DNA of 64,000 bases, from the UHGV virus genome UHGV-0312576. One strand, written 5' to 3'. A model generated the notes under the pieces. The model ran no database searches. It was not told the origin of the DNA and saw only the letters and a list, made by a program, of their open reading frames with translations. This document shows positions 6,435-7,755 of the stretch, in pieces. Position 1 is the first letter of the stretch, and each line of letters begins with the position of its first letter. This stretch comes from a virus. The translations under genes were made by a program, and so were the position numbers.

Positions 6435-7538
6435 TTAAGCTAATATTCTTCGCATCATATCTACGAAACCTGAAATATCAGTAAAATAATTAGGATATGC
6501 TGCTTTTAATGTATCAAAGGATGTTGCCGACACAAGTACAACATCTAAATTTGGATTATTGATTTCTTCGATTTTGTTATACACATTAGTTGCAAGTTCA
6601 ACTTGCGACTTGAGAAATGAATTTATTTTTAATAATTTTTTCTTATAATTTAGCTGTAAAACATAATATCCATTTTTTTTAATTTTAGTGTTTTCATTTA
6701 CATGATTTATTGCTACAGATAAAGCACTCAATCTTGATACGATATATAGCCTTTTATCTATTTCTCTGATTTCAGATATGAGTGTGTTAAAATCATCAAT
6801 GGTATTTGGAGCTATAGGGGTTCCCTCCATTTTTGCAAATACGGAAGATACAAGAACGAAAAACCTTAATATATCTTCATCTCCAAGACTGGCCTTTAAC
6901 TGTGATTTTGTATAAATCCCCATCATTTCTACAGCCGTTGCCCATGTATGTTGGAGTTTTGTGCGGAACTGTATTTCAATAAACATATTTTTATTATAAG
7001 TCTCTTTTGTGTCGCTATGGAACTGATAAACAATATGATAAGACCTATACCCTGATTTCTTAGGGGATTGAATATAGTCATCCTCTCGCTTGATTATATG
7101 ACGTATTCGAGAAGATTTGTATTTATTCAGTGCATCGTATACCTGTTCTATGGTGTCAACAATAACTCTACAACCACCCAAATCTTGCATTCGATATAAA
7201 TTCATATCGGGAAATCTCTCAAGTTTCCCAATAATTGATTCTAGCCGTTTAAGCCGTTGGACAACAATAGCATTAGGATTACGTAATCTAAGATTACTTG
7301 CTATAACTTGTAGAGGGTACGCATGTGCAGAACGCCAGTTATTTACTATTTCCAATGCAGCATAACGTTCCTCTGGTTCAATTGTGGGGATAGCGATGGT
7401 CTTGCCAGCGTTATTAATTTCTTTTTTTGAATATTTAGGTGTTTCCCACTTTTCTATAGATAGTTGATTGTTCATAGAATTTTCCCACTCTTTTGTAAGG
7501 TTTTGTATAATTATATCATAAATATCGGTTTTTTGCAT
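6435..7538 (-). CDS. RelA/SpoT-domain nucleotidyl-pyrophosphotransferase (toxSAS/CapRel-like), 367 aa from the RBS-supported start
   Basis: Synthetase-domain motifs 'GGCRVIVD', 'SGYRSYHIVY' and 'IEIQFRTKLQHTWA' are present. An AGGAGG RBS sits 7 nt upstream of the ATG at 7538. The longer ORF-track start at 7643 would overlap the upstream small gene. A C-terminal extension of about 140 aa has unknown function. Confidence 0.75.
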   Translation of the reverse strand: MQKTDIYDIIIQNLTKEWENSMNNQLSIEKWETPKYSKKEINNAGKTIAIPTIEPEERYAALEIVNNWRSAHAYPLQVIASNLRLRNPNAIVVQRLKRLESIIGKLERFPDMNLYRMQDLGGCRVIVDTIEQVYDALNKYKSSRIRHIIKREDDYIQSPKKSGYRSYHIVYQFHSDTKETYNKNMFIEIQFRTKLQHTWATAVEMMGIYTKSQLKASLGDEDILRFFVLVSSVFAKMEGTPIAPNTIDDFNTLISEIREIDKRLYIVSRLSALSVAINHVNENTKIKKNGYYVLQLNYKKKLLKINSFLKSQVELATNVYNKIEEINNPNLDVVLVSATSFDTLKAAYPNYFTDISGFVDMMRRILA

Positions 7539-7554
7539 TACAATTCCTCCTATT

Positions 7555-7755
7555 TTAATCAAAATATCCAAGGGTTTCTTGAAAAATAGATTCCAATTTC
7601 TCTTTAAGAACATGTTTGTCTGTCTTGTAGGCATCGATTTCAACAGTTACCTTAAGGCCAGGGAATTCAATTTCATTCTCTGGTTTATTATTACGTAAAG
7701 TCATTCCTTCCTCATCAAATACAAATTTTTGTGGTATTACTTGTGTTTTGGTCAT
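7555..7755 (-). CDS. small protein (66 aa) immediately upstream of, and co-operonic with, the RelA/SpoT-domain gene. Possible antitoxin or partner.
   Basis: ORF track. Its stop at 7555 lies 17 nt before the toxSAS start. Confidence 0.45.
   Translation of the reverse strand: MTKTQVIPQKFVFDEEGMTLRNNKPENEIEFPGLKVTVEIDAYKTDKHVLKEKLESIFQETLGYFD

Follow-up and report, generated by a model that had tools for sequence, protein, structure and literature searches.

The window, a 64,000-nt stretch of the virus genome UHGV-0312576, carries a 367-aa reading frame on the minus strand behind a 66-aa gene; both ORFs named in the preliminary description were found at the coordinates given (Table 1). For the larger gene, the mechanical ORF list held a longer, TTG-initiated form of 402 aa (6435..7643) that overlaps the 66-aa gene; this form was rejected, as the ATG at 7538 has a strong ribosome-binding site (RBS; AGGAGG, 7551..7546) and homologues are mostly 365-368 aa long, favoring the ATG start. 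The small gene had been placed 17 nt upstream of this RBS, but its stop codon (7557..7555) lies 16 nt from the large ATG and the RBS falls inside that spacer. The 367-aa protein contains all three core small-alarmone-synthetase motifs noticed earlier, DLGGCRVIVD, KSGYRSYHIVY and EIQFRTKLQHTWA, with one correction: the T and H of the last are separated by three residues, not two. The Pfam RelA_SpoT domain is matched by residues 94-209 (E 5.6e-21); about 140 to 160 residues remain on the C-terminal side, in line with the extension of about 140 aa described at first reading.

Table 1. Features of the CapRel-type locus in the window (all on the minus strand)
Feature	Coordinates	Strand	Basis
66-aa backbone gene of unknown function, first in the minus-strand operon, divergent from Ku	7555..7755	(-)	16 clusters, dN/dS, contexts
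Ribosome-binding site AGGAGG of the CapRel-type gene	7546..7551	(-)	within the 16-nt spacer past the small gene's stop codon
367-aa gene, probable fused CapRel-type toxSAS	6435..7538	(-)	stop codon 6435..6437; ORF and sequence
Putative toxSYNTH (pyrophosphokinase) domain, residues ~31-230	6849..7448	(-)	R95, D119-x-G-G-x-R124, Y164, E188-I-Q-F-R-T
Putative C-terminal antitoxin/sensor region, residues ~231-367	6438..6848	(-)	CapRel-SJ46 alignment; AlphaFold2 secondary structure
Putative YXXY neutralisation motif, Y348-P-N-Y351	6486..6497	(-)	aligns with CapRel-SJ46 Y352/Y355
Intrinsic-terminator-like hairpin, then T run	6397..6423	(-)	11 nt past the CapRel stop codon; terminator scan
Cassette of ~1.2 kb (RBS, CapRel and terminator)	6333..7541	(-)	blastn against L040/L041; junction sequences
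Ant-like protein, P22_AR_N domain; neighbour, not component	5412..6308	(-)	PF10547 8.7e-11, phrog_524 6.6e-13

Our database searches identified CapRel-SJ46, encoded by Salmonella phage SJ46 (PDB 7ZTB, 9ERV; Zhang et al. 2022 and 2024, PMC9712102, PMC11578894), as the top match of the 367-aa protein by a wide margin, in both the PDB and the phage collection. With phmmer, PDB 7ztb_A/9erv_A was matched at E 3e-40 and 38% identity, residues 34-360 of 367 aligning with residues 13-364 of 373, whereas ordinary SAS enzymes reached E 1e-13 at best and were aligned over the catalytic core only. Among 50,697 phage records, the best match was the SJ46 RelA/SpoT gene (33% identity, 90% coverage, 2e-41), and PhRel (gp29), which belongs to the bipartite system of Phrann, matched residues 33-279 only (E 2e-7). 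The profile search proposed in the preliminary description returned, besides RelA_SpoT, near full-length matches to the PADLOC candidate single-gene defence family PDC-S33 (5.7e-121, residues 31-366) and to phrog_4773, a phage family of unknown function (1.1e-97, residues 31-365). Both are known as catalogue entries for which no mechanism has been described, and PDC-S33 is not mentioned in any paper of the literature library searched. The family is large, with 1409 representatives at E<1e-30, mostly of 340-375 aa and matched end to end. A megablast search of GenBank phages with the locus gave zero matches; by this comparison, the host element is without a close sequenced cultured relative.

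The toxSYNTH domain is the most conserved part of the protein (mean column conservation 0.88). Residues R79, R116 and Y155 of CapRel-SJ46, of which the arginines coordinate ATP and the tyrosine lies in the G-loop (PMC9712102), map onto R95, R124 and Y164 in our protein; all three are invariant among 34 homologues, so that the catalytic residues, whose possible degeneration had been raised beforehand, are kept. The C-terminal region shares 34% identity with residues 271-364 of CapRel-SJ46 over 80 aligned residues. In the AlphaFold2 model (pLDDT 78.9), this region has anchor helices, followed by a beta-beta-alpha-beta unit that resembles a pseudo-zinc-finger, with strands at 290-297, 302-309 and 331-338 and a helix at 310-325, and then by helices at the C-terminus; the predicted fold is of pseudo-zinc-finger topology. 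Foldseek searches with the model placed 9erv_A/7ztb first (E ~1e-22, TM 0.63-0.69, ~350 columns), followed by SAS1 (3e-7, ~190 columns), which supports a resemblance of the C-terminus to the pseudo-zinc-finger domain (pseudo-ZFD, pZFD) of CapRel. Near the C-terminus, the putative YXXY motif corresponds to an element with a neutralising, autoinhibitory role in CapRel (PMC9712102, PMC11782079); among the 34 homologues, P349, N350, Y351 and F352 do not vary, and conservation of Y348 is 90% or higher. Interface residues V334, L335 and A347 are kept relative to CapRel-SJ46, and two are substituted (A77 to V93 and A341 to S337); R95, R124, Y164, V334, L335, A347, Y348 and Y351 are all invariant or nearly so in the homologue set.

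The conservation profile and pairwise comparisons of the homologues revealed a variable, swapped segment at residues ~240-330. Two homologues from related loci, L001 and L036, are 100% identical over residues 1-180, 30-40% identical over residues 271-330 and ~80% identical thereafter, and the same mosaic pattern was found when the window protein was compared with those of L039 and L006. These alignments indicate that one toxin domain is found joined to differing putative sensor segments. This mosaicism matches the specificity-determining variable region published for CapRel (PMC9712102), and the natural variants, with identical toxin domains and divergent sensors, offer ready specificity swaps for trigger searches in gut phages.

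The likeness to the fused toxSAS CapRel proposed in the preliminary description thus holds at the levels of sequence, predicted fold, functional residues and variable sensor region. The gene probably encodes a CapRel-type toxSAS toxin-antitoxin fused in a single polypeptide, and forms a self-contained cargo cassette of a large gut Lachnospiraceae phage or prophage. The window protein and CapRel-SJ46 are both encoded by a single ORF and share an N-terminal toxSYNTH domain, anchors, a pseudo-ZFD and a C-terminal helix, as well as the R/R/Y catalytic and ATP-binding residues, the YXXY motif, most interface residues, the variable sensor and a large, temperate-type phage element as carrier. They differ in their hosts, Firmicutes (Lachnospiraceae) versus enterobacterial, in the ~20 additional N-terminal residues of the window protein, with a predicted helix at residues 6-19, and in the upstream context, a 16-nt spacer behind a small backbone gene here and, in SJ46, a 214-aa gene separated by 112 nt. 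The identity between the two is only ~33-38%, so that the substrate, whether tRNA or nucleotides, and the trigger would be extrapolations.

That the protein is toxic, targets tRNA, is autoinhibited, responds to a trigger and confers defence is inferred by analogy with CapRel-SJ46, the one member of the comparison in which a toxic N-terminal domain neutralised by the C-terminal domain, pyrophosphorylation of tRNA 3'-CCA ends and abortive infection triggered by a phage protein have been reported (PMC9712102). At rest, the C-terminal pseudo-ZFD would be folded back onto the N-terminal pyrophosphokinase domain, with the YXXY motif (Y348/Y351) wedged between R95 and R124 and blocking the ATP donor site. 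A competing, infecting phage might then supply a protein, for example its capsid protein, that binds the variable anchor/pseudo-ZFD region (~240-330) and keeps the C-terminal domain open. The opened enzyme would transfer pyrophosphate from ATP to tRNA 3'-CCA ends, which would halt translation and abort the infection.

Although the intact RelA_SpoT domain might also be that of a phage-encoded alarmone synthetase, reprogramming or poisoning host metabolism through (p)ppGpp or (pp)pApp and leaving tRNA unmodified, this appears unlikely. Some toxSAS enzymes, FaRel and Tas1, do make (pp)pApp, and NCBIfam GTP diphosphokinase models gave sub-threshold matches to the window protein; however, these housekeeping models all fell far under their cut-offs (e.g., YjbM, 64.5 bits against 320), and the closest characterised relative over the full length is by a wide margin a tRNA pyrophosphokinase, CapRel-SJ46. 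Furthermore, the putative donor-site-blocking YXXY/pZFD module is present, a module that the literature ties to tRNA-targeting toxSAS, whereas producers of (pp)pApp are neutralised via the acceptor site. The housekeeping enzymes RelQ/SAS1/YjbM and RelP/SAS2/YwaC resemble the window protein in the fold and motifs of the RelA/SpoT synthetase core, but they match over ~120 core residues (E 1e-8 to 1e-13) and are without the anchors, the pZFD and the YXXY C-terminal region.

The homologous toxSYNTH domain also occurs in bipartite toxSAS, including PhRel/ATphRel of mycobacteriophage Phrann, unfused CapRel/ATcapRel and FaRel2/ATfaRel2, which follow a like neutralisation logic with a pZFD-like element bearing a YXXY motif. 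Their antitoxin is a separate, adjacent pZFD-homologous gene, whereas the pZFD-like region of the window protein is fused to the toxin domain. The question arises whether the 66-aa gene adds a second component. The ORF belongs to a family of 16 clusters with 70-98% identity and has a dN/dS of 0.07-0.35, which indicates that it is a real gene. Its protein matched no family in Pfam, PADLOC, NCBIfam or PHROG, and its structural model is of low confidence (pLDDT 61.8), dominated by one long C-terminal helix. A profile match to Cmr1 (E 0.017, 39 residues) was taken as chance.

A role of the 66-aa protein as trans-acting antitoxin, co-sensor or regulator, in the two-component or hybrid system that had been considered from the gene order, is very improbable. 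Such a role would be consistent with the 16-nt spacing, with the lack of any terminator detected between the two genes by the terminator scan, and with the recurrence of the pair in the closest relatives (L001-L003, L036, L052 and L054). Yet 31 of the 34 viral loci with CapRel homologues (62-83% identity) have no 66-aa ORF upstream, nor does the SJ46 system have a small upstream ORF. Conversely, in four of six diverged lineages of the small gene (P0128, P0130, P0132 and P0133) it is not followed by a RelA/SpoT gene, and in the P0134 lineage the order is reversed, with the RelA/SpoT gene upstream. The constant neighbour of the small gene is instead Ku-ligase, always divergent. The two proteins also fail to co-vary: in L052 CapRel is 100% identical and the small protein 86%, while in L036 the values are 70% and 91%. 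From these comparisons, the two genes are not co-inherited and bear no sign of co-evolution. Nor is the spacing distinctive, since the small gene and the Ant-like gene are similarly close (21 nt) where CapRel is absent.

The properties of the 66-aa protein likewise set it apart from the bipartite antitoxins, which it resembles neither in motif nor in conservation with the toxin. It has two tyrosines, Y43 and Y64, and no YXXY motif, and similarity to the fused C-terminal pZFD was not detected (E 27). Apart from Cmr1 and an oxidoreductase, a PDB profile search at E<=10 gave no matches, neither to antitoxins nor to Gp54, and Foldseek with the low-confidence model gave zero matches at E<3, the model containing neither a beta-barrel nor a pZFD. 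Gp54 of Bas11 is of interest here as a 66-aa phage protein that CapRel-SJ46 is known to bind; this trigger, a small beta-barrel (PDB 9AXB, 9ERV chain B), has its length alone in common with our small protein, is unlike it in sequence and fold, and a Gp54-like trigger function was rejected. These results suggest that the 66-aa gene is a conserved backbone gene of the phage lineage, and its role as a toxin, antitoxin or sensor component is not supported. Annotating the locus as a two-gene toxin-antitoxin system would be mistaken, with the tightly spaced small gene a tempting but wrong second component.

Sharing an operon with the small gene may nonetheless influence the expression level of the CapRel-type gene, and the transcript is perhaps shared. 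It is very doubtful that the 66-aa protein, co-transcribed and probably translationally coupled, tunes CapRel as a lineage-specific accessory modulator, for example by shielding the toxin from structural proteins of its own phage or by adjusting how strongly it is expressed; the evidence disfavors this reading. Within the closest clade, the two genes do stay together.

The tight gene spacing can be explained by the way in which the CapRel-type gene entered the locus. Window segments 7804..7542 and 6332..4791 adjoin each other in the related loci L040 and L041 (blastn), and in relatives without the cassette the Ant-like gene directly follows the small gene. The junctions indicate that the cassette was inserted immediately past the stop codon of the 66-aa gene, with clean boundaries, and so landed directly behind it. 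The terminator-like hairpin that closes the cassette has a predicted RNA folding energy of -15.1 kcal/mol (z -4.15), and a comparable one is found after the CapRel gene of L039, which lies at another position; in these phages, the gene behaves as a movable unit of RBS, ORF and terminator in a variable slot. An internal CapRel promoter was rejected, as the lone sigma-70-like match between the genes overlaps the start codon and does not exceed the shuffled expectation. In L055 and L056, the slot is occupied by a 180-aa convergent ORF with zero matches in Pfam or PADLOC, and the idea of a defence hotspot at this site found no support. The 298-aa product of the gene on the other side of the cassette had been described as a Bro-N-like antirepressor; it matches P22_AR_N and the PHROG anti-repressor Ant family instead, and is present in relatives both with and without CapRel.

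Could the module serve the maintenance of its carrier rather than defence against phages? The element encodes ParB-like genes and a tyrosine recombinase, and CapRel-SJ46 is likewise encoded by a P1-like (Punavirus) element, as would be consistent with an addiction module stabilising a large phage, prophage or phage-plasmid. We consider this quite unlikely, because toxin and antitoxin in one polypeptide make impossible the differential decay needed for classical post-segregational killing. In addition, the swapping of sensors among identical toxin domains points to selection on recognition, as in the published defence role, and presence or absence on near-identical backbones is typical of dispensable cargo. 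The fused CapRel-type toxin-antitoxin would fit its context as accessory or superinfection-exclusion cargo, and would extend CapRel-type single-protein phage sensors to large gut Lachnospiraceae phages. The prophage state assumed in the preliminary description is plausible, while within the window neither a host flank nor an att site was identified. Relatives were located on IMG/VR contigs of 42-196 kb, most of them 90-165 kb, and on contigs of bacterial origin (0.26 to 5.7 Mb).

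Structure-database and phage-record searches pointed to CapRel-SJ46, the fused toxSAS toxin-antitoxin of Salmonella phage SJ46, and the RelA/SpoT, CapRel-like reading of the 367-aa protein in the preliminary description is well supported. The Pfam RelA_SpoT domain matched at residues 94-209 (5.6e-21), and NCBIfam models of housekeeping (p)ppGpp synthetases matched the core only, with scores far under their cut-offs. The PADLOC candidate defence family PDC-S33 covered residues 31-366 (5.7e-121) and phrog_4773 (unknown function) residues 31-365 (1.1e-97), so the protein already falls within existing profiles; what is new is the host group and phage type, in which CapRel has not been studied. 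Among all PDB chains, two entries of the Salmonella tRNA pyrophosphokinase CapRel-SJ46, 7ztb_A and 9erv_A, matched best (E 3e-40; residues 34-360 against 13-364 of 373), and ordinary small alarmone synthetases aligned along some 120 residues with E-values of just 1e-13 to 1e-8. The best tblastn match among 50,697 GenBank phage records was the RelA/SpoT gene of phage SJ46 (33% identity, 90% coverage, 2e-41), whereas PhRel, the bipartite toxin gp29 of phage Phrann, matched residues 33-279 only.

When 1.84 billion representatives were searched exhaustively with HMMER, 5507 relatives passed E<=1e-3, of which 1409 also passed E<=1e-30. The top 150 are mostly 340-375 aa long and align with the query between about residues 30 and 365, and the fused architecture is therefore the family norm, as is likewise the rule for the subfamily outside Actinobacteria (PMC9712102). 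Some CapRel-like representatives (P0143, P0151, P0166, P0180, P0219, P0221 and others) reach 591-825 aa, have the CapRel-like part at their N-terminal end and thus carry an additional C-terminal region. With toxin and antitoxin fused here, a classical addiction role for the gene is unlikely.

Across 320 aligned positions the window protein is 38% identical to CapRel-SJ46, with 40% in its N-terminal and 34% in its C-terminal part. It contains D119-x-G-G-x-R124 and E188-I-Q-F-R-T, which we take to be the motifs that serve Mg binding and catalysis in RelA/SpoT synthetases. Across an alignment of 34 homologues (69-87% identity), catalytic and YXXY residues showed either no variation or conservation of 90% or more. 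In the numbering of the PDB-match alignment, and with roles as given in PMC9712102, the ATP-coordinating R79 and R116 of CapRel-SJ46 correspond to R95 and R124, the G-loop Y155 to Y164, and Y352 and Y355 of the YXXY neutralisation motif to Y348 and Y351. The docking interface is kept at V338, L339 and A351 (V334, L335 and A347 here) and changed at A77 and A341 (V93 and S337).

Extending the mechanism of CapRel-SJ46 to this gene, whose architecture, conserved catalytic and autoinhibitory residues, modular sensor and cassette organisation we observed, the protein would rest in a closed, autoinhibited state with YXXY in the ATP donor site. Binding of a foreign phage protein to the anchor and pseudo-zinc-finger domain (pseudo-ZFD) region would open the enzyme, which would then pyrophosphorylate tRNA 3'-CCA ends; the resulting translation arrest and abortive infection would benefit resident phage and host. 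Synthesis of (pp)pApp or (p)ppGpp in place of tRNA modification is less likely, given that donor-site blocking by YXXY and the pseudo-ZFD has been reported for tRNA-targeting toxSAS, while neutralisation of (pp)pApp producers acts on the acceptor site.

An AlphaFold2 model from the 34-homologue alignment (mean pLDDT 78.9, pTM 0.71) bears on the C-terminal extension, for which a comparison with the CapRel pseudo-ZFD had been proposed. Strands were modelled at 290-297, 302-309 and 331-338 with a helix at 310-325, followed by short helices around YXXY and a terminal helix. This predicted fold matches the topology described for the pseudo-ZFD of CapRel, a three-stranded sheet with a connecting helix (PMC9712102). 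Foldseek against the PDB placed 9erv_A and 7ztb first (E ~1e-22, ~350 aligned columns, TM 0.63-0.69), ahead of SAS1 (5ded; 3e-7, ~190 columns). With a moderate rmsd of 6-7.6 A, the match would be consistent with two domains placed differently relative to each other.

Column conservation was highest in the toxSYNTH core (0.88) and around strand beta-8 with YXXY (0.91), and lower in the anchors (0.78) and pseudo-ZFD (0.72). Between the CapRel genes of two related loci, L001 and L036, residues 1-180 are 100% identical, residues 271-330 only 30-40% and those beyond about 80%; the same trough appeared when the window protein was compared with those of L039 and L006. The region sets phage specificity in CapRel-SJ46 and CapRel-Ebc (PMC9712102) and includes the variable anchor-1 helix, contact site of Gp54 in CapRel-SJ46. 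Such a trough on a constant toxin domain fits selection acting on what is recognised. The coding part of the C-terminal sensor (window 6435..6700, minus strand) has a G+C of ~0.25-0.29 against ~0.34-0.37 for the toxin domain, which fits a separate history of the swapped segment. These natural sensor-domain swaps, together with clean cassette boundaries, are the most useful by-products of the analysis.

Both open reading frames described earlier are present on the minus strand, with small corrections. The small gene does lie close upstream, but the figure of 17 nt to the RBS is slightly off: its stop codon (7557..7555) is 16 nt from the CapRel ATG, and the RBS lies within this spacer. The 367-aa form was taken as the product because AGGAGG precedes its ATG and most homologues have 365-368 aa; a 402-aa TTG-initiated ORF from the mechanical ORF list, overlapping the small gene, was set aside. 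A terminator scan found a hairpin starting 11 nt past the CapRel stop codon (-15.1 kcal/mol, z = -4.15 against shuffles).

Features of the CapRel locus and of the surrounding element
Feature	Window position	Strand	Basis
Small gene, 66 aa	7555..7755	-	ORF and sequence
CapRel gene, 367 aa	6435..7538	-	ORF and sequence
RBS AGGAGG of CapRel gene	7551..7546	-	precedes ATG 7538
Hairpin and T run, 10-bp stem	6423..6397	-	terminator scan; RNA fold
Ku (PF02735, 8.9e-39) and ATP-dependent DNA ligase (PF01068/PF04679)	7878..9601	+	Pfam
SAM-dependent methyltransferase	9637..10347	-	PADLOC mad2 (MADS system), 3.4e-17, part of profile only
Two IS110-family transposase genes	2310..3596; 40251..41444	-; -	DEDD_Tnp_IS110 and Transposase_20
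ParB-like/DUF6551 protein adjoining tyrosine recombinase	27945..29773	+	
RNA ligase adjoining polynucleotide-kinase-like protein	43860..46099	+	phrog_968, 1e-59 (ligase)
tRNA genes (two tRNA-Gln, one tRNA-Met)	34846..34920; 57564..57637; 57710..57783		
Sigma factor	35646..36320		
PAPS-reductase-like protein	49634..50635		
ADP-ribosylglycohydrolase	54684..55463		
Tail-fibre PHROG	56443..57084		
HNH endonuclease	63162..63917		

From sequence comparisons, the 66-aa gene is a real gene but very probably not a partner of CapRel, with linkage failing in both directions. It is under purifying selection (dN/dS 0.07-0.35) and its protein family is narrow (16 clusters, 70-98% identity). The small ORF preceded the CapRel homologue in three of 34 IMG/VR loci (L001-L003; homologues 62-87% identity) and was missing from the other 31; the pair also occurs on a fourth viral contig, L036, which was found via the small protein and lies outside this count. 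Conversely, the window-like order of small gene and then CapRel occurs in the P0127 lineage and window clade (at least 86% to the window). In lineage P0128 (83%) other small genes follow and a RelA/SpoT gene is absent, in P0130 (77%) a convergent 180-aa ORF follows, in P0133 (73%) this ORF and next an Ant-like gene, and in P0132 (73%) an Ant-like gene 21 nt downstream; P0134 (70%) has a RelA/SpoT gene upstream, 325 nt off. The two proteins showed no co-variation in comparisons of the window with L052 (small protein 86% identical; CapRel, Ant, Ku and methyltransferase 100%, ligase 99%) and L036 (small protein 91%, CapRel 70%). The suggested two-component or hybrid toxSAS is not supported. The 66-aa protein also shows none of the traits of a known partner: it lacks YXXY, bears no resemblance to the fused antitoxin domain (E 27) and gave zero matches in Pfam, NCBIfam, PADLOC and PHROG searches; a PDB profile search returned nothing beyond two weak, apparently chance matches. 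Its low-confidence model (pLDDT 61.8) has one clear C-terminal helix and found no Foldseek match at E<3. A trigger role was also rejected: Gp54 of phage Bas11, a CapRel trigger, is a six-stranded beta-barrel of 66 aa, and the shared length is a coincidence.

What stays constant next to the small gene is the Ku-ligase pair, a two-gene end-joining module on a phage, transcribed divergently from it in every relative examined. Between the window and L052, a patch of ~260 nt (window ~7687..7950 against L052 2700..3300) has been replaced in otherwise almost identical sequence, with a single mismatch from 7686 down to ~4555. It spans the first 23 small-gene codons, the intergenic stretch between Ku and the small gene (which includes a 25-nt indel) and synonymous sites at the Ku 5' end, and is a local recombination tract in a divergent promoter region.

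CapRel itself behaves as an inserted cassette. Window positions 7804..7542 and 6332..4791 are contiguous in L040 and L041, and the window therefore carries ~1.2 kb extra (7541..6333), comprising RBS, ORF, terminator and ~60 nt more; L043 and L044 lack segment 7555..5462, with CapRel and the Ant-like gene. In L039 the CapRel gene lies at another position, again with a hairpin much like the window's after it, and in further large viral contigs its flanks bear no relation to the window. The tight spacing is accounted for by the cassette having inserted directly after the stop codon of the operon's first gene. The slot carries other cargo in relatives; the convergent 180-aa ORF found there in CapRel-less relatives (L055 3030..3572 and L056 1383..1925, both minus strand), without a match in Pfam and PADLOC searches, may be one such alternative.

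By its content and its relatives, the window seems to be a section of a large phage genome: it holds the tRNA genes and recognisable proteins of the table, the IMG/VR contigs that carry relatives of the locus measure 42-196 kb, mostly 90-165 kb, and the 174,915-bp ENA scaffold L052 is nearly identical. Named homologues come from Enterocloster clostridioformis, Lacrimispora and uncultured Lachnospiraceae, and because some lie on contigs of 0.26-5.7 Mb, the integration implied by the earlier term prophage is plausible; no junction is visible within the window. The 298-aa neighbour, previously described as a Bro-N-like antirepressor, is a P22_AR_N/Ant-like protein. Most of the window ORFs outside the table lack a family match. 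Both IS110 transposase genes lie inside the phage-like element, one of them near the accessory operon. The RNA ligase and polynucleotide-kinase-like protein form a pair of the tRNA-repair type, which may relate to CapRel self-protection or to host anticodon nucleases and shares one element with three tRNA genes and a presumed tRNA-targeting toxin.
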